NCBI GenBank assembly: GCA_001772615.1
Contig: MEUZ01000004.1
Coordinates: forward strand, 8,455-72,454
Direction: 5' to 3'
Length of the DNA stretch: 64,000 nt
From: a candidate division WWE3 bacterium RIFCSPHIGHO2_01_FULL_40_23
Lineage (GTDB): Bacteria; Patescibacteriota; WWE3; UBA101185; 2-01-FULL-41-18
Shown here: one piece after another, positions 3,623 through 63,379 of the stretch
Numbering within the stretch: the stretch's first letter is position 1
Layout: each line of letters opens with the position of its first letter
Made by a program: the position numbers and the translations under genes
The notes under the pieces: generated by a model
What the model was told of the DNA's origin: nothing
Database searches by the model: none
What the model saw: the letters and a program-made list of their open reading frames with translations, nothing else

Positions 3623-4821
3623 AGAAGTTCTTTTTTTATTTGATATTTAATACTGTATTTTTGTTAACCCTATCATTAAGGGCACAGGCGGGGAGTAGCG
3701 TGGATATTTACTATAATAACGCGTGTTCTGACTGTGTAAGTTATATTGACGAATTAAAACCTGTCCTTAGCAACTACTACTTGGAACCTATTCTAAAAGA
3801 TTATATTAATAGACCAGAGTACAGGAAGGAATTAAATGAGGAAAATAAAAAGTATCAAGTACCAATAGGTCTTCAAGACAGTTTAACCATTTTTCTGAAG
3901 CCCAATTTAGCTATTGAAGGCCACGTGCGGGTAAGTACTGTAGAGAGTTTGTTAGCAAGTTATGAAAACCTTCCTAAACACAAGCTGATTATTTTATACC
4001 AGCCAGAAATGCATTCCAACGCTAAAGAAGTAACTGTTTTTGTTTCAGGTTATAAACAAGAAAAAGTTTCGGCTGATTTAGATTTGGTAAAACTAATCCA
4101 AGATAAAACCTTAAAAACCGAAATCAGCGCCCCCAGCAGCAACCTTTTCATACCGATAATAACGGGTGCAATAGCCAATAGCCTCCATCCCTGTGCTATC
4201 GCGGTTCTTCTGCTTTTACTAACCTTCCTTTATGCGATTCACAAGAAAAAAAAGGAGATTATAGATGTGGGGTTAGCTTACGTTTTTGGTATATTTGTCG
4301 TTTACTTCTTAATAGGTTTAGGAATTATGAAAGCCCTGTCGCTTTCCGACGAACCGTTCTTTGTAGCCAAAGTTGCCTCACTTATACTGATTGTTCTTGG
4401 TATCATAAACATTAAAGATTATTTCTTCCCCGATTTGCCTGTCCACTTAAAAATCCCTGATTTCACAAAAGGCGCGATTCAATACTTTCTAGAAAAAACA
4501 AGCATTCCAACAGCCTTTATAGTCGGTGCTTTGGTAGGGATATGCGCGTTCCCATGTACAGGTGGTATCTATACGGTAATTATTTCAACGTTAGCAGCAG
4601 TAAGATCATCACAGTTTATAGCATATCTTATGCTTTACAACTTTATATTTATACTGCCGTTGCTTTTAATAATTATGATAGCGGGCAATAGAAAGCTACT
4701 GGAAAGAGTAGAGGAGCTTGAAATAAGGAACTCAAAAAGGTTACATTTAATAATCGGAATTTTTATGGTACTTATAGGTCTGGGGGTTTATTTATGGATT
4801 AAGGCAATAATATATGGTTAA
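3619..4821 (+). CDS. CcdA/DsbD-like thiol:disulfide transporter membrane domain fused to an N-terminal secreted CxxC domain
   Basis: Signal peptide, soluble domain with ACSDC, then polytopic membrane domain with SLHPCAIAVLLLL and ICAFPCTGGIY resembling the two conserved PC motifs of the CcdA/DsbD family. Confidence 0.5.
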   Translation: MKKFFFYLIFNTVFLLTLSLRAQAGSSVDIYYNNACSDCVSYIDELKPVLSNYYLEPILKDYINRPEYRKELNEENKKYQVPIGLQDSLTIFLKPNLAIEGHVRVSTVESLLASYENLPKHKLIILYQPEMHSNAKEVTVFVSGYKQEKVSADLDLVKLIQDKTLKTEISAPSSNLFIPIITGAIANSLHPCAIAVLLLLLTFLYAIHKKKKEIIDVGLAYVFGIFVVYFLIGLGIMKALSLSDEPFFVAKVASLILIVLGIINIKDYFFPDLPVHLKIPDFTKGAIQYFLEKTSIPTAFIVGALVGICAFPCTGGIYTVIISTLAAVRSSQFIAYLMLYNFIFILPLLLIIMIAGNRKLLERVEELEIRNSKRLHLIIGIFMVLIGLGVYLWIKAIIYG

Positions 4822-15582: not shown

Positions 15583-15792
15583 TTATGCCATTGGGCTATC
15601 AAGAGAATCAAATGTTTCCTTATTAACAAATTTAGTTAGATTCACCATATCCCCATCAACTTTAGTTGAAGCAACTACTGCGTACCTTGTCATTTTATTT
15701 CCACCTTTTCCAGTTACATCAAAAATTTTTTTCTTAAGATCGGATGTTGGAACTTCTACTTTTTTTCTATGTTTGACTGAATAAAACTCCAC
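15583..15792 (-). CDS. small basic hypothetical protein (69 aa), GTG start
   Basis: Perfect AAGGAGGTGA Shine-Dalgarno 6 nt upstream of a GTG start; lysine-rich product; sits upstream on the same strand as the 536-aa membrane protein gene. Confidence 0.5.
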   Translation of the reverse strand: MEFYSVKHRKKVEVPTSDLKKKIFDVTGKGGNKMTRYAVVASTKVDGDMVNLTKFVNKETFDSLDSPMA

Positions 15793-15846
15793 TAAAAATC
15801 ACCTCCTTAAAAATTACGTAACTAATATTGTTCTATTTACGGCTCA

Positions 15847-17662: not shown

Positions 17663-17737
17663 GCGGGAGTAATTCAGTGGTAGAATGTTTGCTTTCCAAG
17701 CAAAACGTCGCGGGTTCGAGTCCCGTCTCCCGCTCCA
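17663..17737 (+). tRNA. tRNA-Gly (anticodon TCC)
   Basis: Cloverleaf folded by hand: acceptor GCGGGAG/CTCCCGC, anticodon stem TTTGC/GCAAA with loop TTTCCAA, T-loop TTCGAGT, encoded CCA. Confidence 0.85.
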
Positions 17738-17768
17738 AAGTGACTGGGATACATAGAAAGTTACAATA

Positions 17769-18098
17769 ATGACTAAAAAATTAGCGTTTATTTTTGTGAC
17801 AGTTTTTGCTTTATTCTTCATCTCTCTAACAATCTTTTTTTATAACGAATTAAACTTACCTAAATATTCTGATATTCCCATTATAACCAGTGACAATATC
17901 AGTATTAATAAAAAAGACTTAAATAAAATTCTTGAAAATATGAAAGAATCATCTGTTAATTACATTAATTGTAACGACACAAAAACTTATTACAGCAACC
18001 AACTTAAACTATCATTTATATGTCCTGAAGATTTTGTGATATACGAGTGCAAAAACCCTAATTATGAATCTCTTGATGAAAAAGGAGTATATAGCTAA
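17769..18098 (+). CDS. small hypothetical membrane-anchored protein
   Basis: 109-aa ORF with N-terminal TM helix. Confidence 0.35.
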   Translation: MTKKLAFIFVTVFALFFISLTIFFYNELNLPKYSDIPIITSDNISINKKDLNKILENMKESSVNYINCNDTKTYYSNQLKLSFICPEDFVIYECKNPNYESLDEKGVYS

Positions 18099-18318
18099 TA
18101 ACTTAGTGATCCATCAAGTAATAGAATACGAAGGCGCCAATGAACCACCTCATTCTGAATTTGTAACTTTTAAACATAATAATCAGTACTTTCAAATTGG
18201 GTTCTAGGCGTAGAACTGATAAATACATTCAACCAAGTTATTAAGACCTTAAAATTTGATGATGATTAATTGGTTCTGGTTGGGTAATTCCTGAAAGAAC
18301 TAAAAGAAAAGTTTGATG

Positions 18319-19671
18319 TTAGTTATCGGTTGATTGTGGAGCGTTGCTATTGTTTCCAGGTGTATTATTGTTATTTCCTCCACTCGCATTATCCGTGCCA
18401 TCGTTAGCACTTTGTTGATCTTTATTCTTATCCTTCTTTTCCTTTGTGGGTTCAGGTGTAGGAGTAGGAGTTGGAGTCCTAGTCGGTCTTGGTGTGGGAG
18501 TAGGCGTAGGGGTTCTTGTTGGCCTCGGGGTTGGTGTTTGAGTTGGCGTTGGATCGGGCTCGTCTCCATCCCCTGATCCAGAACCTCCCCCACTATTGCC
18601 CCCGCTATTTCCTCCTCCGCCACTGTTACCTCCACCGGTATTGCCACTACCCCCTTGGTTTCCTCCAGTGTTTCCACCGTCCGTATTGTCACCGCTACTA
18701 TTATCACCGCTGCTACCTCCACCAGCACTCGGATTTTCAGGTTTATCTTCCTTATCCTTATCTGGTTTCCCGCCACCTACCGAATTATCACTTGAATTTC
18801 CGTCCGAACCGCCGCCATTGGAATCATTATTGCCGTTTGAACCATTATCGGATCCGCTTAAAACGCTTGAACCCCCTTCATTTGTAATGGAATAAATAGA
18901 CTGTGTGGGATCAGGGTAACCAGAAGGTGTAGCGCTTTCGCTAGCTTCAAGAATCCTTGTATCCGAAGTCCCCATTATACTTCCATCAGCATCTTTTTGA
19001 GGGGATATGAAACCCGCCAGTACAACCCCTGCTCCCGCGGTAAAAAGAAGAGAGGCTAACTTAATTGCGGGTATCAACTTTTTACCTAACATAAGTGGAA
19101 ATAACACAAAGGCTTTCTTTCCGCTCATAACCGAAGCTCCCCTGACAAGCGCTTTCTCACCTTCTCTTACAACACGGTAAATCTTTACCGCCTCCGGAAC
19201 GCCGCGAAGAAGCTTTGTACCGGCTGGTACGGCCCCTATTTCAGTTTTGTTCATTGCGAGATAAACAGCTTCGGTAAAAGATATATCTCCAGGTTCAGTT
19301 AGCGGCACAAGTCTAGCGGCCACATTTACAGGCTCTCCAAAGACATCGCCATCCTTGACACGAACTTCCCCGCTGTTAGCTGCTATACGAAACTTAATAT
19401 TCTCTTCAGGGGATACTGTTGCATTGTGAGTGTTAACCTCCTCTTGAATCCTCTTAGCACACAAAACGGCATTTGTAGGGGATTCAAAAGTAAGCATATA
19501 GCCATCACCCAGATTCTTAACAATATTGCCGCTCTGCTCTTTAGCCGCTGTTGCAACAATAAGTTCTTGTACAGCAAGAAGGTTGTCAACTTGTGTACGG
19601 GATAAACCGGAAGTACGGCTTGTAAAGCCTTCCATGTCAGTAAAAAGGATAGTAAGGTTTCGGGTCTCCAT
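18319..19671 (-). CDS. class III adenylate/guanylate cyclase domain protein with TM segment and long low-complexity C-terminal tail
   Basis: N-terminus LTILFTDMEGFTS..GDGYMLTF..RIAANSGEV matches the nucleotidyl cyclase catalytic domain; then hydrophobic segment; then G/S/N/D-rich and PTPTPRPTRT repeat tail. Confidence 0.75.
   Translation of the reverse strand: METRNLTILFTDMEGFTSRTSGLSRTQVDNLLAVQELIVATAAKEQSGNIVKNLGDGYMLTFESPTNAVLCAKRIQEEVNTHNATVSPEENIKFRIAANSGEVRVKDGDVFGEPVNVAARLVPLTEPGDISFTEAVYLAMNKTEIGAVPAGTKLLRGVPEAVKIYRVVREGEKALVRGASVMSGKKAFVLFPLMLGKKLIPAIKLASLLFTAGAGVVLAGFISPQKDADGSIMGTSDTRILEASESATPSGYPDPTQSIYSITNEGGSSVLSGSDNGSNGNNDSNGGGSDGNSSDNSVGGGKPDKDKEDKPENPSAGGGSSGDNSSGDNTDGGNTGGNQGGSGNTGGGNSGGGGNSGGNSGGGSGSGDGDEPDPTPTQTPTPRPTRTPTPTPTPRPTRTPTPTPTPEPTKEKKDKNKDQQSANDGTDNASGGNNNNTPGNNSNAPQSTDN
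18430..18560. repeat. imperfect tandem DNA repeats encoding the Pro/Thr-rich PTPTPRPTRT linker of the cyclase gene
   Basis: Reiterated ggagtaggagttggagtcctagtcggtcttggtgtggg-type units visible on the + strand. Confidence 0.6.
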
Positions 19672-19773
19672 GACTGCAATATACTACTATATTTTATCTC
19701 AATCAATAGCTCAATGTCTATACGTTTAAAGGGCTTTTAAGACGGTCAAATATTGAGTAAAATACACTTGCTT

Positions 19774-19849
19774 GCGACCGTAGCTCAATGGATAGAGCAA
19801 TTCCCTTCTAAGGAAGAGGTTGCGTGTTCGACTCACGCCGGTCGCACCA
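19774..19849 (+). tRNA. tRNA-Arg (anticodon TCT)
   Basis: Acceptor GCGACCG/CGGTCGC, D-arm GCTC..GAGC, anticodon loop CTTCTAA, T-loop TTCGACT, encoded CCA. Confidence 0.85.
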
Positions 19850-19896
19850 AGAGTTTTGTAATTACAGTGAGAAACCTATAGAAAAAAGTAACGTTT

Positions 19897-19982
19897 GCCC
19901 AGGTGGCGGAATAGGCATACGCTTCACACTTAAAATGTGATGCCGAACAGGCGTGTGGGTTCGAGTCCCACCCTGGGCACCA
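19897..19982 (+). tRNA. tRNA-Leu (anticodon TAA), type II with long variable arm
   Basis: Acceptor GCCCAGG/CCTGGGC, anticodon loop CTTAAAA, long variable arm, T-loop TTCGAGT, encoded CCA. Confidence 0.85.
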
Positions 19983-20002
19983 AGATCAAATTACTGAAAA
20001 AC

Positions 20003-20221
20003 ATGGACGAATTTCTTTATAAAGTTCCATTAATAGGAAGCATTATAAAAAAACAGTACAGCTATTTCAGAAACCACATGGCCCTGACTGATCTATTTCA
20101 TTTACTGGCTGGGTTCGGACTAGCGCTTATTTTCTTTACCAGTAGGATGCTACTTGGGTTTGTTATCCTCGGTTTTAGTATTTTGTACCATTTGTATGCG
20201 ATACTTAAAGTCAGAGATTAG
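20003..20221 (+). CDS. small hypothetical membrane protein (start moved downstream of tRNA-Leu)
   Basis: The track ORF begins inside the tRNA; first Met after the tRNA gives a 72-aa protein with two hydrophobic helices. Confidence 0.3.
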   Translation: MDEFLYKVPLIGSIIKKQYSYFRNHMALTDLFHLLAGFGLALIFFTSRMLLGFVILGFSILYHLYAILKVRD

Positions 20222-20230
20222 CCGTAAACT

Positions 20231-20926
20231 ATGTTTAGCTCCTTAACTCTTAAGGTTAAATTTGCTCTTTTCACTTTAGTACTTCTTGTACTTACCGGAG
20301 CAGTTTTGAATTACTCCGAATCTCTCAAACACAACAGTGAAAAGCTCCCTCCAGGGCTTGAGGAAAAACACAAGTTTAGAAAATGGATTGGAAAATGGAA
20401 GGATGAATTCCCTCAATTAGAGGCTGATACTTTTAAACAAATAGATGATGGAGAAATAATTTCCTCAACAAACCCAAGATACACGGTTGAAGAACTGAAT
20501 TTGGAGAAAGTCCAAACCGAAATAGCAAAATACAAAGGTGAAAGATATGTTGTTATTGCACCTGACAAACTTCAACTTCTTAACTTCAGGGTGTTCTTTT
20601 CCAATAATAAGGAAGCAACCTCTTCGTATGTTTATTACTTTGGAATACGTGATGACAAAGTTTTGCATGGACCTATTTATGAATGTAAGAAAACAAGCTG
20701 CTATTTTGATAAACCATTTTTTGAGGGGCCTGATCTGTTCTACCTTCCGGAAGTGGAAGAAAAAGTTATTCCAAATAAAGCTATGAAAGGCGCAACATCC
20801 ACTCCCGCTGTTTATGAACTATACCTGCATGAATTTGACCTCAAAGCCAACAAAAGAAAAACATATATCTCCACGCAACTTCTTACAGACTTCAGTAAAA
20901 TACAAGAAGTCCTTGAAGACCTTTAA
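20231..20926 (+). CDS. hypothetical secreted protein
   Basis: 231-aa ORF with N-terminal signal/TM helix. Confidence 0.45.
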   Translation: MFSSLTLKVKFALFTLVLLVLTGAVLNYSESLKHNSEKLPPGLEEKHKFRKWIGKWKDEFPQLEADTFKQIDDGEIISSTNPRYTVEELNLEKVQTEIAKYKGERYVVIAPDKLQLLNFRVFFSNNKEATSSYVYYFGIRDDKVLHGPIYECKKTSCYFDKPFFEGPDLFYLPEVEEKVIPNKAMKGATSTPAVYELYLHEFDLKANKRKTYISTQLLTDFSKIQEVLEDL

Positions 20927-20981
20927 TCCACTCCTAACTTAATACTTACAGCAAGATGTGATAAATTAAACATGACTACGG

Positions 20982-21058
20982 CGGGGTGTAGCTCAGTTGG
21001 CTAGAGCGCTACGTTTGGGACGTAGAAGTCGGAGGTTCAAGTCCCCCCACCCCGACCA
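20982..21058 (+). tRNA. tRNA-Pro (anticodon TGG)
   Basis: C1-G72 acceptor CGGGGTG/CACCCCG, anticodon stem CTACG/CGTAG with loop TTTGGGA, T-loop TTCAAGT; one A-C mismatch in my T-stem fold. Confidence 0.75.
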
Positions 21059-21091
21059 AAGCTGAAAAACTTAAATGGTACAATATAAACT

Positions 21092-21757
21092 GTGATTCCT
21101 ATTAAAGACAGTGAGCCATCAGGCATATTTCCTTTAGCAACTATATCAATAGTAATAATCTGCGCAATTATTCTATTTAACGAGATGTCTCAAGTTAACC
21201 TTGAGGAGTTTGTTTTTAAATGGGCACTGGTACCGTCACTTATTGACTTTTCAAACTTTTCAACACTTTATCCATTTGTGACATCCATATTTCTCCATGG
21301 CGGTTTTTTGCATTTTCTCTCCAACATGTGGTTTCTTCTGATTTTCGGAGACAATGTTGAAGCCTCTCTGGGAACAATTAAATATATTATATTTTTCCTA
21401 CTAGCTGGTATATTTGCTTCCTTTGTTCAATTTTTATTTCTCGTAGGGAGTAATGTGCCAATCCTTGGAGCAAGCGGCGCCATAGCGGGGGTTCTTGGTT
21501 TTTATATGGTCGCTTTCCCAAAAAACAAAGTAGATACTTTAATTCCTTACATTGGCCTTATAACAACAATTCGTCTTCCCGCGCAAGCTGTTCTTCTAAT
21601 GTGGTTTGTCACACAGCTCTTTAACGGGACTGCGGGATTTATTTCAGAAACATCAGCCACTTCAGGAATTGCATGGTGGGCTCATATTGGCGGGTTTATA
21701 TTTGGAGCTTTTATAGGACTTCTACATGGAAACTCGAAAAGGTCTTTTAATGTTTAA
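21092..21757 (+). CDS. rhomboid family intramembrane serine protease
   Basis: FLHGGFLHFLSNMWFLLIFG, catalytic GASGAIAG and AHIGGFIFG His motif across 6 TM helices. Confidence 0.85.
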   Translation: MIPIKDSEPSGIFPLATISIVIICAIILFNEMSQVNLEEFVFKWALVPSLIDFSNFSTLYPFVTSIFLHGGFLHFLSNMWFLLIFGDNVEASLGTIKYIIFFLLAGIFASFVQFLFLVGSNVPILGASGAIAGVLGFYMVAFPKNKVDTLIPYIGLITTIRLPAQAVLLMWFVTQLFNGTAGFISETSATSGIAWWAHIGGFIFGAFIGLLHGNSKRSFNV

Positions 21758-22299
21758 TTCTGCTGGAATGTTGTAGTCTCAATTATTTCAGAAAAATAAC
21801 TTTCTTTAAGCTTTCTTACCTCTTCAGAATCCGTTGGGTTAAATAAAACTACATATCTTACTTTTATACTTGAGTTATAAGGAAATGGAACTTCCGACAC
21901 AAAACTCGCTACGGATGAAAGGTCAGAAGAGAAATTAACTTCTTTATTAACGTGGGTACCGTAGACAACGACTGGCTTTAGATTATTCGTTAGTGGAGAA
22001 GTCTCTTTGTAGAAAACAGATCTTGAAGAAAAACTTACTGGGATAATGTACACATAGCCGAAAAGACCTTTTGAGGAGGTTAAAGATAAGCTAAGTGTAG
22101 CTCCTTTAACGGGGCTTTCAGACGCATTTAACTCTTTAATAAGAAGATTAGGGGGGTATTTAAAGCTGAAGTTGTGTTCAATGTCTTTATACTTTGCCCA
22201 GATATTCCTAGGCCATCTAATATTATCCCTGTTTATAACTCCATATACAGCAATACCCGCAAGTGCAAGAAAAGATATAATTAAAAGGGCAGATTTCAT
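21754..22299 (-). CDS. hypothetical secreted protein
   Basis: 181-aa ORF with N-terminal signal anchor. Confidence 0.45.
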   Translation of the reverse strand: MKSALLIISFLALAGIAVYGVINRDNIRWPRNIWAKYKDIEHNFSFKYPPNLLIKELNASESPVKGATLSLSLTSSKGLFGYVYIIPVSFSSRSVFYKETSPLTNNLKPVVVYGTHVNKEVNFSSDLSSVASFVSEVPFPYNSSIKVRYVVLFNPTDSEEVRKLKESYFSEIIETTTFQQN

Positions 22300-22396
22300 A
22301 TGAGCTTTCTAACAACTATAATATACTCGCAAAATCCTTACTACAATGGTCTAGGCAATTTCTGACTTCCACACAATTTTGAACTTTTAGGAAATT

Positions 22397-23023
22397 ATGG
22401 TATCTTTTTCACATCTTATGAAAAACTTTCTGCCCGGAAAAGATTTCACGCTTGTTGCCGCGTGGTTTTTTGCGTCCAATATGATTGTTCTAGTTTTAAT
22501 TATTATTCTTCTTTCGGTTCCAACAGGCGCGAGAAGTACAAATGAGGAAAATATCACTTATTCGGTCTTTTCTTCAAAACCTCCGGTTAACGCCACAATA
22601 TCCGATTCAGTAGAAATAGATGATGCCAGGGCTGCAATTATTGATCAATATTTCAAAGAACATAAGTGCCCGCTAGCTGGAACCGGGCGAAAAATGGTAG
22701 AGCTTTCGGATGAACATAACTTTGAGTTCTGGTGGCTTCCTGCTATAGCGTGGCAGGAGTCATCCTGCGGAAAAAACATCATTGATGGCTCCTATAACGC
22801 GTGGGGATATGGTATTTATGGTGACAACGCAAAAAAATTCTCGAACTGGGATGAAGCCATGGAAATAATAGCCAATGACCTTTCCGTAAACTTTTTTGGT
22901 AAAGGCCTTGTAGAACCATGTGAGGTTGAAAGAAGATACACACCCCCTTCTAAAGGGAGCTGGTGTAGAAGCATCAAATACTTTAAAGACGAACTTATCA
23001 ACTACAAATCCCCCAATATTTAA
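22397..23023 (+). CDS. hypothetical secreted protein, possible lysozyme-like/transglycosylase fold
   Basis: N-terminal TM; AIAWQESSCGKN..NAWGYGIYG loosely resembles the E-S catalytic motif region of SLT/GH23 domains (weak). Confidence 0.35.
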   Translation: MVSFSHLMKNFLPGKDFTLVAAWFFASNMIVLVLIIILLSVPTGARSTNEENITYSVFSSKPPVNATISDSVEIDDARAAIIDQYFKEHKCPLAGTGRKMVELSDEHNFEFWWLPAIAWQESSCGKNIIDGSYNAWGYGIYGDNAKKFSNWDEAMEIIANDLSVNFFGKGLVEPCEVERRYTPPSKGSWCRSIKYFKDELINYKSPNI

Positions 23024-23060
23024 ATCTCCTTTAGTTAATCTGTGATAATATTTAAGCTAG

Positions 23061-23151
23061 GCCGGGATGGCGGAATGGCAGACGCGATGGGCTTAGAACC
23101 CATTGGGGTTTCAAAAACCCCGTGGGAGTTCAAATCTCCCTCCCGGCACCA
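23061..23151 (+). tRNA. tRNA-Leu (anticodon TAG), type II
   Basis: Acceptor GCCGGGA/TCCCGGC, anticodon stem ATGGG/CCCAT with loop CTTAGAA, variable arm GGGG..CCCC, T-arm GGGAG-TTCAAAT-CTCCC, encoded CCA. Confidence 0.85.
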
Positions 23152-23306
23152 AGATCACTTCTAAGCTAATTGGAATCTTCTAGAGCTAAAAAACCAATAT
23201 AAAAGATTTGAAAGCCGCAGCCCGAGTTTATCGAGGGCGAGGCGGGGTCGCGAGCGTTAGAAACTCTTACGAACGAAGTGAGTTAGAGCTTCTTACAACT
23301 CGTGAC

Positions 23307-23329
23307 CAAATCTCCCTCCCGGCACCAAG
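23307..23329 (+). repeat. 23-bp direct repeat copy of the tRNA-Leu(TAG) 3' end (caaatctccctcccggcaccaag)
   Basis: Identical to 23131..23153; lacks the 5' half of the T-stem so not a functional tRNA; att-like duplication. Confidence 0.8.
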
Positions 23330-23335
23330 TAAAAC

Positions 23336-23767
23336 TTACGCAAGGTCAATATTCCAAATCATTATAAAAAATTTCTTTACATTCCTGTAAATCCAGTAGA
23401 GAAGAAGATAAAGATGAATTACTGTTATAACTTTAGCGCTGACTTCTAAAGAATTATTTAAAAGAAAGGAATAAGCAGGCATGAGGAAAGAAAAACCTAT
23501 ATAGGAAAGAACAACAATCAAAGCAAGGTACGAAAGCTTCCATAAAAAATCCTGATAGAGAAAGGTTTGGGCTAAAATATCAATGAAAAAAAGGCAAGCG
23601 CCAGAAGCTAAAAGAGTTAACACAACTCTTAAAAACATACCAAGCTCCAGATTTCCAAAATATGAAACAAAAAGTAGATAAAAGGTTAAGGAAAAAAACA
23701 GTAAAACGAGATAATAAATTCCCTTCTCAAGAGTCTGCTCACTTGCCATACTTATTTCATAACACAA
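23336..23767 (-). CDS. hypothetical polytopic membrane protein
   Basis: 143-aa ORF with four hydrophobic helices. Confidence 0.4.
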   Translation of the reverse strand: MCYEISMASEQTLEKGIYYLVLLFFSLTFYLLFVSYFGNLELGMFLRVVLTLLASGACLFFIDILAQTFLYQDFLWKLSYLALIVVLSYIGFSFLMPAYSFLLNNSLEVSAKVITVIHLYLLLYWIYRNVKKFFIMIWNIDLA

Positions 23768-23810
23768 AAGCCGTGTTTACTTCAAGATTATATGCTAAAA
23801 TACCGCGGTT

Positions 23811-24653
23811 ATGGAAGTGAAAGTTGAAAAACTCCCAAAATCAACCGTTAAACTCATAATTAAAATTGAATCCGATAAAGTCAAGGAAACTTACCAGCAT
23901 GTACTTTCGGAGTTCGCAGAAGAGACCGAAATGGAAGGCTTTAGAAAAGGCAAAGCCCCACTTCCTCTAGTTGAAAAGACAGTAAAAGAAGGTGACCTTA
24001 ATGGAGAAACCATAAACCACCTGCTAAGGCAGTATTACACATCAGCTCTAAAAGAGCACATGATTAAACCCGTTGGTAATCCTAAGGTAATAATCAAGGC
24101 TTTCTCAAAAGACGCGGATTTCGAATTTGAGGCCGAAATTGCAGTTAAGCCAGATATAGCCCTAGGAGACTACAAATCAAAACTTAAACAAGTCCATCTA
24201 AAGAAAAACCTTGAAAACAAAGACGAAAAGCAAAGCCTAAACATTGAAGATGTTATATTCGCTGTATCGGAAGTTTGCGAGGTGGAGTTTTCAGACATTT
24301 TGGTAGAAGAAGAAGTAAATAGAATGCTTGGGAGGCTCCTCCAACAAGCTGAAACCCTCGGATTAAACATAGAGCAGTACCTTTCAGCGCAAAACAAAAC
24401 AGTTGAACAGCTGCGAAAAGAGTATGAGGAAACAGCGAAGAAAAACATTAAAGCCGAGTTCGCTTTGTCTAAAGCAATTGAGCAAGAGGACATTAAAGTA
24501 GAGGATAGCGAAATAGAAGAAGCCATAAACGCTGTCCCTGACGAAAAAGTAAGGGAGGAACTTCAAAACGGGACAGACAGGTGGTATATTATCAGTATAC
24601 TGGCTAAAAACAAGCTTATTAAAAAATTAATAGATGAAACGGAGGGTAAATAA
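23811..24653 (+). CDS. tig: trigger factor, short form lacking the PPIase domain
   Basis: N-terminal ribosome-binding domain with GFRKGKAPL signature and C-terminal arm-like helical region; only 280 aa; followed by clpP as in the canonical tig-clpP arrangement. Confidence 0.75.
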
Positions 24654-24654
24654 T

Positions 24655-25263
24655 ATGTCAACTTCCAAAGGTCAACTAATCCCTGTAGTGGTAGAGAAAG
24701 ATCCTAAAGGTTTTGAAAGATCGTATGATATATATTCAAGGCTTTTAAAAGATAGAATTGTTTTCCTTCAAGACCAAATAGACACTTTTCATGCAAATAT
24801 AGTAATAGCCCAGCTTTTATTCCTGCAGGCTGAAAATCCTAAAGAGGATATAAAGCTTTATATAAACAGCCCAGGGGGAAGCGTGTACGCAGGAATGGCG
24901 GTTTATGACACTATCAAACACTTATCCTGTGACATTTCAACTATTGCAGTTGGGATGGCGGCGTCCATGGCTTCTTTAATACTCTCTGCAGGAACCAAAG
25001 GCAAAAGGTACGCTCTTCCTAACTCTATAGTTTTAATACATCAACCTCTAATGCATGGGCTTGAAGGTCAGGCTTCGGACATTGAAATTCATGCCAAAGA
25101 ACTTTTAAGGTTAAAAGATATGAGCGCTGAAGTTTTGGCAAAAAATACTGGTCAGAAAAAGGATAAGATATTAAGGGATATGGATAGAGATTTCTTTATG
25201 ACTGCAAAAGAGTCTAAAGAATACGGGATTATAGATAACGTGTTTGAAGAGAAGAAAGCTTAA
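24655..25263 (+). CDS. clpP: ATP-dependent Clp protease proteolytic subunit
   Basis: [19 protein letters not shown], catalytic Ser in [11 protein letters not shown], His in IHQPL; start placed at the Met with proper spacing after tig. Confidence 0.95.
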
Positions 25264-25311
25264 GCTTGGTGGGTCTGTGCCACGTTAAATTTGCGAAAGC
25301 AAGTTTTCACG

Positions 25312-25388
25312 TGGTGGGTCTGATAGGACTCGAACCTATGACCTTCTCGATGTCAACGAGACGCTCTAACCAACTGAGCTACAGACCC
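25312..25388 (-). tRNA. tRNA-Val (anticodon GAC)
   Basis: Reverse complement folds with acceptor GGGTCTG/CAGACCC, anticodon stem TCTCG/CGAGA with loop TTGACAT, T-loop TTCGAGT, encoded CCA. Confidence 0.85.
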
Positions 25389-59341: not shown

Positions 59342-60076
59342 ATGGAACTTGCCAAATCGGGAAAGCCAAAAATAGCTAAAGATTTTTTCATTTACTTTCT
59401 GCTTCCGATATTGCTTCTTGGAGGTACCGCGGCTCTTTCCGTATTAATTGCCTATCCCGCTTATAAAGACCTTCCTGTTAAAGATTCAGAACTTAAAGCA
59501 TTGCAGGAAAAAGACTTAAGGCTTGATCAAAAACTTAAAAAACTTAATGATCTGACCGACTTTAAAGAAATTGTAGATGAAGATTTAAAGTTAGTTAACT
59601 TTGCGCTTCCTTCGGAAGCCGAAGTACCTCTTCTTTTAACGGAGGTTCAACAAATAGCGAAAGAATCAGGGCTTGCAATAGGGGCTTTAAACTACTCTTC
59701 AAGCGGACCTAATGAAGCCGGTGATACAAGCAGAGTTAATGTCTTTCTTAACGCGAAGGGAAACTTTAGTCAAACTAAGACATTTCTTGTAACTTTAGAA
59801 AAAGCCGCAAGAATAGTTGATATCTCAACGATTAGGTTTTCTTCTTTAAAAGGAGCCAGTCCCCAGTCACTTGAAGTATCGGAAATTGACTTATCGCTTG
59901 GCTTAACATCGCCTTTTCTTTTCGTGGAGTCAAAAGCTGTCACCGAAGACCCCATAACCATTGATATAAGAGATGGTGCTTTTGTTAAGTTTATGAACAA
60001 TCTAAAAAATTATAAGGTTTATGAAACTGTTGTTGACACTTCAAATATAGGAAAAGAAAACCCCTTTGTGCAATAA
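59342..60076 (+). CDS. PilO-like type IV pilus assembly protein
   Basis: Single TM then coiled coil and alpha/beta domain; position after pilN-like gene. Confidence 0.45.
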   Translation: MELAKSGKPKIAKDFFIYFLLPILLLGGTAALSVLIAYPAYKDLPVKDSELKALQEKDLRLDQKLKKLNDLTDFKEIVDEDLKLVNFALPSEAEVPLLLTEVQQIAKESGLAIGALNYSSSGPNEAGDTSRVNVFLNAKGNFSQTKTFLVTLEKAARIVDISTIRFSSLKGASPQSLEVSEIDLSLGLTSPFLFVESKAVTEDPITIDIRDGAFVKFMNNLKNYKVYETVVDTSNIGKENPFVQ

Positions 60077-60128
60077 CCCCCTCCTCCTCGGGGTATATTC
60101 TAAAATTCACCTTGGAAACCCTCCGCAT

Positions 60129-60332
60129 AAGACAACAGGAAATGCCTCTTAAGGGGCACTCGGAGCGCAATGTTTTGTCATCCTGAACTTGACTTAGGAT
60201 CTGTGATAAGATTACCGCTTTCGCGGGAATGACATCGCATTGCGCGAGAAAGAACGCCGCGAGTTCTGTGCTATACAATTAATTATTAGAGACTAGCGGA
60301 CGTGACCCCGTAGAGGCATTTCCTGTTGTCTT
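60129..60332. repeat. perfect 21-bp inverted repeat (aagacaacaggaaatgcctct / agaggcatttcctgttgtctt) enclosing a 162-bp structured segment
   Basis: Read directly; encloses nested inverted repeats gcgcaatg/cattgcgc and element A below. Confidence 0.8.
60176..60235 (+). repeat. structured inverted-repeat element, copy A (tgtcatcc..ccgctttcgcgggaatgacat)
   Basis: ATGTCAT-type terminal inverted repeat plus GAAA/TTTC-loop hairpin; second copy at 62797..62890. Confidence 0.6.
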
Positions 60333-60353
60333 CCAGATCGGGGACTTTAAAAC

Positions 60354-61163
60354 TTAATTTTGTAAAGGAGTGTCATCTGAAGTGGAAAAGATTGCAAAGT
60401 CAAATTCCGAAGGAAGATAAGGTTTGGTCTTAAGCGCTGTTACTGTCTTTACAACATCACTAACAGCTCCAGTAGCGGTAATCACATAACCCTGGATAGG
60501 GAGAGCTGATCCGCCTTTAGGTATTACGTGAAGATTAATATCATTGTAAATAGCTCGGACTCTTAGAAATAAAGGTGTAGTTTTGGCTGGAACCGTAAAA
60601 CAGTTAGGATATGAAAGATCGGATGCGGCAGTTGAAAAACCATTAGAACCATGAAGGGTAGAAGCGGCATTATAAGCATACTTTGACAGAGAATACGGAG
60701 AAGCCCCATGCACATAAGAAACGTAAACCGAAGGGTTATCACCGCTTGCGGCGTCATCCCAGCAAAGTTCTACCGTGCTTGATGAACTATACCCCGTAAG
60801 ATCAACCTCGTATGTTGCATTCTTTTCAACCTTAACATCAAGCTGATTTGTTGAATTCCCGTAATGGGAAAGAGTGGCCTGGGCTGTTGCGGTGATGCCA
60901 TCGGAGCCCGTTATGATAAGCTGACATGCGGACCCGCAGCTGTTGTTAGCTATGTAATCATCAAGCGTACCGGAATTTAAAGTAAGGATCCTTTCAACAA
61001 GGGCTTCAGCTACCCCTAAAGCCCTTACAGAGGAATCAATTTTAACGCTTCTTTTAAACCCTTGTATGACCCTATTGGAAACAATAAGTCCTGTAGCAAG
61101 AGCAAGGATCATAACAAGCAGCACAATTACAAGTGTCTGCCCTTTTTGATTGTAATAAAGCAT
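60354..61163 (-). CDS. PilX-like minor pilin/pseudopilin
   Basis: N-terminus KGQTLVIVLLVMILALATGLIVS; paralog of 54864..55784. Confidence 0.5.
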   Translation of the reverse strand: MLYYNQKGQTLVIVLLVMILALATGLIVSNRVIQGFKRSVKIDSSVRALGVAEALVERILTLNSGTLDDYIANNSCGSACQLIITGSDGITATAQATLSHYGNSTNQLDVKVEKNATYEVDLTGYSSSSTVELCWDDAASGDNPSVYVSYVHGASPYSLSKYAYNAASTLHGSNGFSTAASDLSYPNCFTVPAKTTPLFLRVRAIYNDINLHVIPKGGSALPIQGYVITATGAVSDVVKTVTALKTKPYLPSEFDFAIFSTSDDTPLQN

Positions 61164-62796: not shown

Positions 62797-62890
62797 ATGT
62801 CATTCCAGACCTGCCTGCTGCAAGCAGGCACATAATCTGGGATATCTACAGAAGATCCGACGGGATCCCTGCTTTCGCAGGGATGACATC
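62797..62890 (+). repeat. structured inverted-repeat element, copy B (atgtcattcc..ccctgctttcgcagggatgacat)
   Basis: Same termini and internal tttcgc hairpin as copy A, plus hairpin gcctgctgcaagcaggc; lies 47 nt upstream of the pilin gene start on the minus strand. Confidence 0.6.
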
Positions 62891-63379
62891 TCAATTAATA
62901 ATAGTGAGATCTGTTCCTACTTCATAAAAGCCGTTGTTATCACCTCCGTCATCTTCCATCTTCTCGGTAAAGTATTCAAGTTTCACATTTACCTCATAAG
63001 AAGAACCGCTTCTCTGATATAAGTATCTATAAGTATTATCATTAATAGGATCTATGGGAAGCCTTGTCAGATAACTGCTTAAGTCGGAAACAATCCAGCC
63101 TGAAGAAGAACTCTCAACAGGTCCCGCATTCCCTTCAGGAATAACATTGCTATATCTCATTGTATCATCTTCATCAGGGGGTGACTCATTATTTAATACA
63201 TACTCCTCAATTGCCGAGGAAAGCCTCACGGCATCTGACAGCCTTACATTATCTCTTGCTTTACGCTGGTAAATCACGGGGTTAATAAATATGGAAACAA
63301 TCAGAGCAATAAGCCCAAGAAGCAAAAATATTACTGTAAGTTCTAAAAGAGTGTAGCCTTTTTCATTTCCCACAATCAT
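62891..63379 (-). CDS. type IV pilin/pseudopilin with prepilin cleavage motif
   Basis: KGYTLLELTVIFLLLGLIALIV class III signal. Confidence 0.6.
   Translation of the reverse strand: MIVGNEKGYTLLELTVIFLLLGLIALIVSIFINPVIYQRKARDNVRLSDAVRLSSAIEEYVLNNESPPDEDDTMRYSNVIPEGNAGPVESSSSGWIVSDLSSYLTRLPIDPINDNTYRYLYQRSGSSYEVNVKLEYFTEKMEDDGGDNNGFYEVGTDLTIIN

Follow-up and report, generated by a model that had tools for sequence, protein, structure and literature searches.

The 277-bp gap at 60077–60353 of the 64,000-nucleotide stretch of DNA analysed here (the window) separates two convergent pilus operons, and we interpret it, with a probability of roughly 55%, as a lineage-restricted composite of two nested palindromic elements, in which an NTS/SRM-like repeat doublet lies inside a strand-symmetric shell hairpin that acts at transcript ends. 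The inner layer, or core (60176–60234), is an inverted pair of ~28-nt DNA hairpin repeats of the NTS/SRM kind. The outer layer, or shell (60129–60332), is an independent long-stem element with a 21-bp closing stem, a second short helix, and central and side hairpins. The doublet lies within the central-hairpin loop and, in the proposed order of events, was inserted into the shell. In read-through transcripts of both pilus operons, the shell most likely works as a strand-symmetric hairpin that defines or processes their 3′ ends, as a terminator, as a 21- to 28-bp RNase III duplex, or as both.

The called genes on the + strand side of the gap are PilM, PilN, and PilO, while those on the − strand are a PilX-like gene followed by pilin-like (N_methyl) genes, in agreement with a first-pass annotation of this DNA, which described a pilMNO-like operon (+) converging on a pilin operon (−). 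The gap begins with a left spacer (60077–60128) that contains a small CCCC(N9)GGGG hairpin at 60077–60093. The perfect 21-bp inverted repeat that had been reported forms the closing stem, P1, of the shell, with its left arm at 60129–60149 and its right arm at 60312–60332 consisting of AAGACAACAGGAAATGCCTCT and its exact reverse complement. The arms start 183 nt apart, with 162 nt between them, and a repeat finder extends them to 31 nt at 87% complementarity. The outermost 9 nt of the left arm, AAGACAACA, are A-rich and the last 9 nt of the right arm, TGTTGTCTT, are T-rich. The 21-mer arm occurs in only two places in the window, both at this site, where shuffled sequences lead to an expectation of 0, and the pair is the sole inverted repeat in the 64 kb that is 16 nt or longer and has arms no more than 400 nt apart. 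Inside P1, the 5′ halves of the inner helices lie at 60153–60172, with GGGG(CAC) at 60153–60159 pairing with (GTGA)CCCC at 60302–60309. Both nested inverted repeats that had been noticed are present: GCGCAATG (60165–60172) pairs with CATTGCGC (60238–60245) to form the central hairpin, the loop of which contains the repeat doublet, and TGTCATCC (from 60176) pairs with GGAATGACA (ending at 60234). The CCGCTTTCGCGG hairpin described inside the element can also be seen in the sequence. The right interior of the shell (60238–60311) comprises the 3′ half of the central hairpin, CATTGCGC, and the side hairpin, in which ACGCCGC (60254–60260) pairs with GCGG-A-CGT (60296–60303) around an AT-rich loop.

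Folding of both strands, a check that the first-pass annotation had recommended, revealed strong structure across 60120–60340, with energies of −92.9 kcal/mol (z = −7.3) for the + strand and −87.6 kcal/mol (z = −8.1) for the − strand, which no shuffled sequence matched. The shell resembles a bidirectional terminator or an RNase III stem in that a fully Watson-Crick stem is placed exactly between two convergent operons, and its A-rich and T-rich outer ends are further similar to those of a bidirectional terminator. Duplexes of 21 to 28 bp are of the length cleaved by RNase III, and a gene for RNase III is found ~9 kb upstream in the same gene array. However, the stem encloses 140–160 nt of structure instead of the 3- to 8-nt loop of a terminator, and a closing stem around an interior of ~160 nt is atypical for an intrinsic terminator. 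Further, the right arm is followed by CCAGAT and not by a clean T-run, with only its last 9 nt T-rich. Most relatives have abutting genes with no hairpin. A simple terminator scan identified one weak site on the − strand at the element, and terminator-like sites were not enriched between 44 and 64 kb (20 found versus 19.1 expected).

The whole gap element is missing from most relatives. Conservation in relatives, by which the first-pass annotation had proposed to judge the element, was not found: in seven syntenic relatives the element is missing and the intergenic stretch measures −4 to 83 nt. In five relatives, PilO and the convergent gene are separated by −4, 2, 2, 4, and 9 nt, and given these near-abutting genes the gap is apparently the derived state. 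Variation also occurs among co-occurring strains, with the scaffold of one (L007) having 40 nt at the gap site. L007 matches the window at 100% identity as far as 60080, where identity stops, and at only 88% from 60317 onward, across the junction ...AACCCCATATCTTGTTGTCTTCC..., although it is a single 2.9-kb metagenome scaffold that could be a chimera of two strains. Its short allele, which is derivable from the window allele by two indels, retains the outer 9 nt of the right arm, and therefore the allele boundaries differ from the inverted-repeat boundaries.

This strain-variable presence, together with a non-coding length of ~200 bp and perfect terminal inverted repeats, gives the shell the appearance of a MITE, here a 204-bp non-autonomous transposon that has 21-bp terminal inverted repeats and would have landed between the operons. 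The GC content of the element (48% versus 39.7% for the window) and the breakage of several assemblies inside it, at 60150 and 60171, are also compatible with such an origin. However, the sequences flanking the outer arms are CCGCAT and CCAGAT, and we confirmed from the sequence that there is no target-site duplication, either around the 21-bp arms or around the copies of the core. No further copy of this arm exists in the window, in ~6 kb beyond it, or in ~9.5 kb before it, and the arm was also unmatched in a metagenome scan, which is a weak result as the collection evidently does not contain this organism. Transposase-bound ends are normally the conserved part of a transposon. In contrast, the two known members of the shell have unlike ends, with the sole homologue located at the same site and bearing arms of different sequence, and the short allele keeps part of one end. 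We consider insertion of a MITE to be very unlikely.

The one homologue of the shell that was detected is in locus L163, where it occupies the same site in the same orientation, next to a PilO that is 57% identical to the one in the window; pilN and pilO have ~60% nucleotide identity between the two lineages. The arms in L163 are perfect and 27–28 bp long but unlike the window arms in sequence, and they read A5G6...C6T5, which is the classical shape of the base of a bidirectional terminator. RNAalifold analysis of the two copies identified 40 shared pairs, with 15 changed on both sides, 1 changed on one side, and 0 broken, in a comparison where the covariation is that of two sequences and the structure is derived from the same two. 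When the partners are slid by 1–3 columns, only 40–51% of cells pair. Between the L163 and window arms, 5 of the 14 innermost aligned pairs are double-changed, which becomes 10 of 21 when the RNAalifold register is used. G-T pairs are absent among the 48 arm pairs, as predicted by constraint on both strands. The shell has thus been conserved by compensatory change in one other lineage. The motif TAGCGGACGTGACCC (60294–60308) is common to the window and L163, and the asymmetric side hairpin keeps its orientation relative to pilO. Overall similarity between the two sequences is modest, consisting of a 31-nt blastn match (E = 0.003) in a co-linear position and a local score of 27, compared with a mean of 17.4 and a maximum of 31 for 500 shuffles. 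A bidirectional terminator, insulator, or RNase III site, as the first-pass annotation had suggested, probably remains the best reading for the outer stem, of which L163 keeps the 40 pairs.

Beyond L163, a search of 378 kb with the shell model R2 returned only its two training sequences and one generic hairpin in L159. A pattern for the side-hairpin (P4) motif matched nothing in viral contigs, and TAGCGGACGYGACCC was present in no other locus among those examined. A neighbor-joining tree of PilN and PilO is star-like, with L170, which has a 9-nt gap, as near to the window as L163, and the tree does not separate vertical inheritance with losses from repeated gain.

The gap could instead be functionless palindromic debris, in which inverted duplication or template switching enlarged a small terminator hairpin that selfish repeats later colonized, while intramolecular gene conversion kept the arms perfect. 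Gap length varies from −4 to 277 nt among relatives, and in one of them (L167) the gap site contains a short hairpin, AAGACACACCA...TGGTGTGTT, with a similarity to the outermost 9 nt of the arms in the window. The palindromes within palindromes of the shell and of one repeat unit (the c2-B loop, described below), as well as the decay of the core copy in the gap, fit this scenario too. However, two lineages keep the same multi-helix architecture with compensated changes that include the inner helices, which gene conversion of the arms does not explain, and the orientation of the side hairpin relative to pilO is conserved. The debris scenario is therefore unlikely.

The core belongs to a different kind of element. 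The core doublet is absent from L163, but doublets recur elsewhere in this genome as pairs of units, A and B, each of which has the form tGTC, an 8-nt arm starting with AT, a 4- to 6-nt loop, the complementary arm, and then C. In the gap copy, unit c1-B (60174–60206, + strand) reads tGTC-ATCCTGAA-loop-TTAGGAT-C and is a decayed copy, and unit c1-A (60205–60236, − strand) reads tGTC-ATTCCCGC-GAAA-GCGGTAAT-C. The second doublet consists of c2-B (62797–62858, + strand), which reads tGTC-ATTCCAGA...TCTGGGAT-A and has its loop enlarged by a nested perfect hairpin, TGCCTGCT-GCA-AGCAGGCA (62812–62830), and c2-A (62859–62890, − strand), which reads tGTC-ATCCCTGC-GAAA-GCAGGGAT-C and has a perfect stem. 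Unit c2-A starts immediately 3′ of the stop codon of a pilin-like gene (62891–63379, − strand) and takes up the greater part of the space before the next pilin gene. Recurrence of the core at 62797–62890, as the first-pass annotation had claimed, is therefore real but partial: the two copies have in common the termini ATGTCATYCC...GGRATGACAT and the GCTTTCGC hairpin, while their interiors differ and the second spans 93 nt where the first spans 59 nt. A third doublet (c3-A and c3-B) is located ~1.1 kb beyond the window end and is inverted relative to the other two.

To search for units we used a covariance model, R1, built solely from the units of other genomes. R1 produced exactly three significant matches in the window, c2-A (36.1 bits, E = 4e-7), c1-B (26.6 bits, E = 1.3e-4), and c1-A (24.7 bits, E = 4.1e-4), with the next best at E = 3.4; it missed c2-B and gave two further matches just past the window end. 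The model found no units in five syntenic relatives, in the 9.5 kb upstream of the window, or in six further loci. All three doublets are intergenic or at a gene start. They are in or beside the minor-pilin operon and within 5.3 kb of pilin genes, with none in the other ~75 kb examined; across the ~80 kb of this genome that was covered, the doublets are thus confined to the pilin cluster. All six units start with (T/C)GTC followed by AT, and a C lies directly 3′ of the palindrome in five of them, with an A in c2-B. Stem pairing is 8/8 in c2-A, c3-A, and c3-B, 7/8 in c1-A, and 7/8 in c2-B with its expanded loop, while c1-B has a one-base deletion. The gap copy is the most decayed of the three, folds weakly as DNA (z = −1.1 and −2.3), and in L005 and L006 carries a T-to-C change at 60200 in c1-B that breaks a pair. 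The degenerate sequence, poor DNA folding, and pair-breaking polymorphism suggest that the c1 doublet may be non-functional.

The units are similar to the neisserial NTS, or Neisseria Transformation Sequence, which extends the older dRS3 repeat ATTCCC-N8-GGGAAT, and to Ssn-related motifs (SRM) (Chenal et al, 2025; PMC11893778). They share with these sequences a (C/T)GTC, a palindrome of the ATTCCCGC...GCGGGAAT type with a 4-nt loop, a C, and a YRG-like tail, as well as being in either orientation, often in inverted pairs, and near particular genes. In other Patescibacteria, the repeats are also multi-copy and mostly intergenic, as NTS/SRM sequences are. Each of the six units has 3–6 differences from the 28-nt NTS consensus (4 for c1-A), and the differences in the stems are largely compensated. 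The published degenerate SRM pattern, HGTCWYN(0-2)YYVSBRHN(0-5)WNVSBRGN(0-2)RNCYNB, has no match in the window or the L001 tail and fits none of the six units. However, this pattern is a hand-made search tool, and failing it therefore indicates divergence, not exclusion. Other differences from the neisserial system are that there are three doublets in ~80 kb here versus hundreds of copies per genome in pathogenic Neisseria, that the sequence searched here contains no Ssn gene, and that the host is a Patescibacteria MAG.

By sequence and structure, the core is a member of a repeat family whose doublets are also found elsewhere. When a pattern based on the window copies was run against species-representative genomes, it had 24 exact matches, most of them in Patescibacteria (Roizman-, Curtiss-, Davies-, Kuenen-, and Nealsonbacteria, and Saccharibacteria), with the others in a Rickettsia endosymbiont, Novosphingobium, and a Flavobacteriaceae genome. 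The matched loci contain up to nine units per 8 kb, usually as inverted pairs, and units form mosaic arrays in, for example, L142, L146, and L152. Of 77 units, 64 are outside long ORFs, although such ORFs make up 81% of that sequence, and members of the family are found in either orientation beside unrelated genes in many genomes. Many partner units equal the published NTS consensus save for the first base, and many others use different stems (ATCCTGAA, ATGCTGAA, ATTCCGCA, and others) with 5-nt loops. Of 74 units taken from these 24 genomes, the published SRM pattern matches only 19, even though canonical NTS copies and doublet partners are among the 74. Because the variants mostly escape this pattern, surveys that use it probably undercount the family. 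In viral contigs, a single-unit pattern has at least 120 matches, some of which adjoin genes for ~97-aa GIY-YIG proteins, while no mixed A+B doublets were found there.

The doublets also have features of REP/REPIN/BIME elements, which are short intergenic palindromes with a conserved non-palindromic head, form inverted doublets that fold into a larger hairpin and sometimes mosaic arrays, and are often downstream of genes. REP elements downstream of genes can stabilize or terminate transcripts. However, the head of the units is GTC followed by AT instead of GTAG, the two units of a doublet here usually have different stems, and no gene for a Y1 transposase (TnpA-REP), as in REP/RAYT systems, was noticed among the called genes. 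Sequence identity thus points to NTS and not to any REP family.

Membership of the core in this family bears on whether the whole of 60129–60332 could be a single functional structured RNA, for example a small RNA, a riboregulator, or a processed 3′-UTR element, with its core reused in the leader of a pilin gene. The very low fold energy on both strands, the compensated outer helices in L163, and the GAAA tetraloops that copies 1 and 2 have on the − strand, the sense strand for the pilin operon, are consistent with a single RNA. However, L163 lacks the core, the third copy of the core is in inverted orientation with respect to its operon, the element is missing in most syntenic relatives, where the genes abut, and the core is an intergenic DNA repeat family that lies beside unrelated genes. 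The arms have no G-U pairs, which speaks against selection on one strand. No Rfam family matches: the window, searched at gathering scores, and 59900–60500 and L163 3380–3726, searched at E values up to 10, yielded only tRNAs and noise, with no tRNA or tmRNA at the locus. In addition, Ssn, the nuclease of the NTS/SRM system, does not bind the RNA form of the motif (PMC11893778). A single functional RNA is consequently quite improbable. The first-pass annotation had preferred an RNA structure to a MITE; the high degree of structure was borne out and the MITE is unsupported, but the gap is not one RNA element, as its core is a DNA repeat family. Two other RNA candidates were rejected. A retron non-coding RNA, prompted by the flanking inverted repeats and a TAGCG motif, was discarded because there is no reverse-transcriptase domain among the called genes of the neighborhood and the motif is on the wrong side of the stem. 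The long closing stem also suggested 6S RNA, which was discarded because the locus has no Rfam match, its duplex is perfect, and relatives lack the element.

In Neisseria, Wolbachia, and other bacteria, GIY-YIG nucleases of ~95 aa known as Ssn bind NTS/SRM as single-stranded DNA and cut it a few bases upstream of the repeat, and their activity lowers the integration of transforming DNA (PMC11893778). The upstream GTC is needed for cleavage by SsnA and the C after the palindrome is most critical for binding, while N. meningitidis SsnA is inactive on an altered palindrome sequence (PMC11893778). The variants in the window would therefore need their own cognate enzyme. As the pair is inverted, each DNA strand has one unit in the forward orientation, which could be cut if the units are Ssn targets as proposed. 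By analogy with these enzymes, an Ssn-type nuclease may recognize the core units and thereby influence transformation. Neither motif scans nor tblastn over 405 kb (best E = 1.4) detected an Ssn/GIY-YIG gene in the window, in the flanking sequence, or in the 24 loci with repeats; the Ssn motif pattern recovered GIY-YIG genes in viral loci, indicating that it works. An Ssn-like protein query had 5,474 matches, the best 120 of which are mostly unnamed, with the named ones among them all alphaproteobacterial (Sphingomonadales and others), a result that is uninformative about Patescibacteria. Patescibacteria are absent from the main text of the study of Ssn (PMC11893778).

The placement of the doublets raises the question of whether they serve as cis sites for pilin variation, either through recombination or inversion between cassettes or as boundaries of a cassette exchanged by transformation. 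Three doublets are found within 5.3 kb of the pilin genes and none in the other ~75 kb, but the clustering statistic of ~(5.3/80)^2 = 0.004 was calculated post hoc. One doublet is inverted relative to the other two, and the drop in identity of L007 from 100% to 88% across the element implies that strain divergence begins at the element, although L007 is one 2.9-kb scaffold and possibly a chimera. Neisseria NTS/dRS3 repeats concentrate near variable genes (PMC11893778), and an inverted NTS pair is included in the sequence of a G4-region construct from N. gonorrhoeae (PMC7593972). However, the gene calls include no recombinase or invertase gene in the cluster, and in the 24 other genomes no pilin genes are beside the doublets. 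A role as sites of pilin variation is accordingly highly doubtful, and we retain for the core the reading as a member of a dispersed NTS/SRM-like DNA repeat family.

A broader and still quite unlikely proposal is that both layers are functional and tied to the competence pilus. The bacterium is presumably competent, judging from its type IV pilus genes. The shell would then represent a strand-symmetric RNA element not described before, which in some WWE3-like Patescibacteria ends or processes the transcripts of both convergent pilus operons, while the doublets and a putative Ssn-type nuclease would limit or bound the replacement of minor-pilin cassettes by transforming DNA. If true, this would be the first sign that the candidate phyla radiation has Ssn/NTS control of transformation, located at the very genes that encode the DNA-uptake machine. 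If an Ssn-type nuclease exists here, the position of the repeats in the pilin cluster would provide a testable link between pilus-gene variation and transformation control.

On the reading of the gap as a composite, a candidate structured RNA turns out to be two nested palindromes with different histories, and the case guards against annotating repeat-derived hairpins as riboregulators. The shell provides a small, clean case of a perfect 21- to 28-bp stem kept by compensatory change at the junction of convergent operons. The core carries the NTS/SRM family, which was characterized only in 2025, into Patescibacteria.

The 277-bp gap at 60077-60353 separates pilM-pilN-pilO on the + strand from a PilX-like gene and then a row of pilin-like genes on the - strand, and the closest named relatives of the flanking proteins are from WWE3 bacteria. 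The perfect 21-bp inverted repeat described in the first-pass annotation was located by reading the sequence, with AAGACAACAGGAAATGCCTCT at 60129-60149 and its exact reverse complement at 60312-60332, and a repeat finder extended the complementarity of the arms to 31 nt at 87%. The 21-mer occurs at these two sites only in the window (0 in shuffles), and forms the only inverted repeat of ≥16 nt with arms ≤400 nt apart in the 64 kb. The structures described as nested inside the arms are likewise all present: GCGCAATG pairs with CATTGCGC, TGTCATCC with GGAATGACA, and CCGCTTTCGCGG forms a hairpin. Folding of 60120-60340 confirmed strong structure on both strands, with -92.9 kcal/mol (z = -7.3) for the + strand and -87.6 kcal/mol (z = -8.1) for the - strand. 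Elsewhere in the window, 17663-25388 contains six tRNA genes within 8 kb (Gly-tcc, Arg-tct, Leu-taa, Pro-tgg, Leu-tag, Val-gac) that have no relation to the gap element.

The core inside the arms (doublet c1, 60176-60234) had been said to recur at 62797-62890 (c2); its termini and one hairpin do recur, but the interior differs. In every core copy, two units of the form tGTC-AT-stem-loop-stem-AT-C are joined head to head, and a third doublet lies in the opposite orientation ~1.1 kb past the window end (15743-15798 of the extended locus L001, window-equivalent 65084-65139). A covariance model of 74 units, all from other genomes, gave exactly three significant matches in the window, at 62859-62890 (-, 36.1 bits), 60174-60206 (+, 26.6 bits) and 60205-60236 (-, 24.7 bits), with the next best at E = 3.4, and two further matches in the doublet past the window end; these scores and the pair counts are partly circular, because the search pattern came from the window copies and the units were chosen as palindromic. 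The same scan found no unit in five syntenic relatives, the 9.5 kb upstream of the window or six further loci. The gap copy is the most decayed of the three doublets, showing a mismatch in a stem, the loss of one base, poor folding as DNA and a pair-breaking polymorphism. This polymorphism, a T-to-C change at 60200 within unit c1-B (position 2919 in contigs L005 and L006), breaks the closing A-T pair of the unit and is the sole difference from the window over 3.6 kb. The third doublet is the best preserved and abuts the start of a pilin gene. A called ORF (L001 15227-15856, -) runs through it as ...NRHPEFNSGSILDSCFCRNDVCKG|FTLIE, and the only start near the prepilin cleavage motif is a GTG that would yield the 4-residue leader MCKG. 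The doublet may have displaced the original start of the pilin gene, or may be translated as a long leader.

Searching species-representative genomes with a doublet pattern derived from the window copies gave 24 exact matches, mostly in Patescibacteria, but also in a Rickettsia endosymbiont, Novosphingobium and a Flavobacteriaceae genome. These loci use many different stems and reach 9 units per 8 kb, and 64 of 77 units fall outside long ORFs, which make up 81% of that sequence. The single-unit pattern had at least 120 matches in viral contigs, and among those listed were Neisseria-type repeats and some copies adjoining genes for ~97-residue GIY-YIG proteins. The Neisseria Transformation Sequence (NTS), CGTCATTCCCGCGMAVGCGGGAATCYRG, has degenerate relatives, the Ssn-related motifs (SRMs), in a wide range of bacteria; to be bound and cleaved by the GIY-YIG nuclease SsnA, such a motif must be single-stranded DNA, and the cut falls a few bases upstream of it; cleavage depends on the GTC and binding on the C that follows the palindrome, and the Ssn system reduces integration of transforming DNA that carries the motif (Chenal et al, 2025; PMC11893778). 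The A-type units of the window are 3-6 positions off the 28-nt NTS consensus, with partly compensated stem changes, and five of the six window units retain both the GTC and the C. However, the published degenerate SRM pattern misses all six window units and fits only 19 of 74 distinct units from the 24 doublet loci (L137-L160), so that these are variants outside the published definition. Common stems missed by the pattern (ATTCCTGC, ATCCTGAA, ATGCTGAA and ATTCCGCA) are partners of canonical NTS-type units. Judged by sequence and structure, the core motif is a variant member of this NTS/SRM-like family of DNA hairpin repeats; independent evidence for that assignment comes from the presence of matches in other genomes and from the fit to the published consensus. 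An Ssn-type nuclease could recognize the units, with a possible effect on recombination within the pilin cluster. No Ssn-like gene was found in the window, its flanks or the examined Patescibacteria loci.

The outer shell (60129-60332) is an element separate from the core. None of the 24 doublets elsewhere is surrounded by a perfect inverted repeat of >13 nt, and a shell of the same architecture, oriented alike with respect to pilO, occupies this site in the relative L163 without hairpin units. Its arms are perfect over 27-28 bp (3493-3519/3638-3664) and unlike the window arms in sequence, and both interiors contain CGCCGCG and TAGCGGACG(T/C)GACCC. RNAalifold on these two sequences, with the doublet removed from the window copy, predicted a shared fold with 40 pairs across five helices, in which 15 pairs are changed on both sides, 1 on one side and 0 broken; sliding the partners by 1-3 columns lowers the pairing cells to 40-51%. 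There are no G-T pairs among 48 in the arms, as expected if constraint acts on both strands or directly on the DNA, because wherever one transcript has a G-U pair, the transcript of the opposite strand has A facing C, a mismatch. A shell-model match of 21.8 bits (E about 3e-4) to a Nealsonbacteria contig (L159 1722-1769) covers just a 48-nt hairpin, probably a generic long one rather than a homologue. The loop of the shell's central hairpin houses the c1 doublet and, in parallel, the loop of unit c2-B holds a perfect 8-bp hairpin, TGCCTGCT-GCA-AGCAGGCA (62812-62830). Further palindromes may land preferentially in hairpin loops.

The conservation in relatives that bears on the first-pass reading did not hold up, as the gap element is absent at the locus in most syntenic relatives. 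Across eight relatives that share the gene order (PilO identity 49-58%), the distance from pilO to the convergent gene is -4 nt (L161), 2 nt (L011, L162), 4 nt (L013 to L015), 9 nt (L170), 77 nt (L169), 83 nt with a short hairpin inside (L167) and about 275 nt (L163). The gap at the pilO junction thus appears derived, not conserved. The L167 hairpin, AAGACACACCA...TGGTGTGTT followed by GCTTTT (gap 1617-1699), has outer bases resembling the outermost 9 nt of the arms in the window (AAGACAACA/TGTTGTCTT), and may be what is left of the long stem or a precursor to it. The PilN and PilO tree is star-like and does not group the two shell-bearing lineages as sisters, so that inheritance with losses looks the same as repeated gain of the shell. 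Scaffold L007 comes from a sample in the same project series and matches the window at 100% identity for 2,788 nt, as far as 60080; it has a gap of only 40 nt (2785-2824) and from 60317 on is 88% identical. Its gap terminates in TGTTGTCTT, the outer 9 nt of the right arm, and the polymorphism boundaries therefore differ from those of the inverted repeat. Either the pilin clusters of co-occurring strains diverge sharply exactly at the element, or the scaffold is a two-strain chimera. Three assemblies end inside the element (L003 at 60171, L009 and L010 at 60150), and contigs L016, L164, L165 and L166 stop 41-91 nt past pilO. Such breaks, recurring in many independent assemblies from the source organism and relatives, suggest that palindromic or variable sequence just 3′ of pilO is commoner than complete contigs show. 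In L168, the C-terminal part of a PilX-like gene (3665-3875, ...GYLITSTGYVNNVKKTVSVMKTKAFPPSVFDYAIFSTS) directly follows pilO on the same strand, inverted relative to every other locus, which reflects either a genuine inversion or a misassembly that folded back at a palindrome.

The shell stem could act as a bidirectional terminator, and the A5G6...C6T5 arms of L163 have the shape of a bidirectional terminator base, the window arms being merely A-rich and T-rich at their ends. However, the stem surrounds 140-160 nt of sequence, the neighborhood shows no enrichment of simple terminator-like sites, and most relatives have no hairpin at the site. A perfect duplex of 21-28 bp is a substrate for RNase III, a gene for which lies ~9 kb upstream of the gap, and the shell would form or process transcript ends. 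The first-pass annotation favored an RNA structure over a MITE. A MITE is indeed unsupported, and at the convergent-operon junction the outer stem behaves as a strand-symmetric structure that is being maintained, but the region as a whole is not one RNA element: the core belongs, as a variant, to a DNA hairpin-repeat family, and the locus is missing in most relatives.

The 'Multisite G4' construct of N. gonorrhoeae contains an inverted NTS pair, GTCATTCCCGCGAAAGCGGGAATCTAG ... CTGGATTCCCACTTTCGTGGGAATGAC (strain table, PMC7593972). Among the 24 doublet loci in other genomes, none has a pilin gene beside the doublet. The G4 of the N. gonorrhoeae construct should lie upstream of pilE, in which case Neisseria too has NTS doublets next to type IV pilin genes. 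Surveys based on the SRM pattern probably undercount the family, above all in Patescibacteria.
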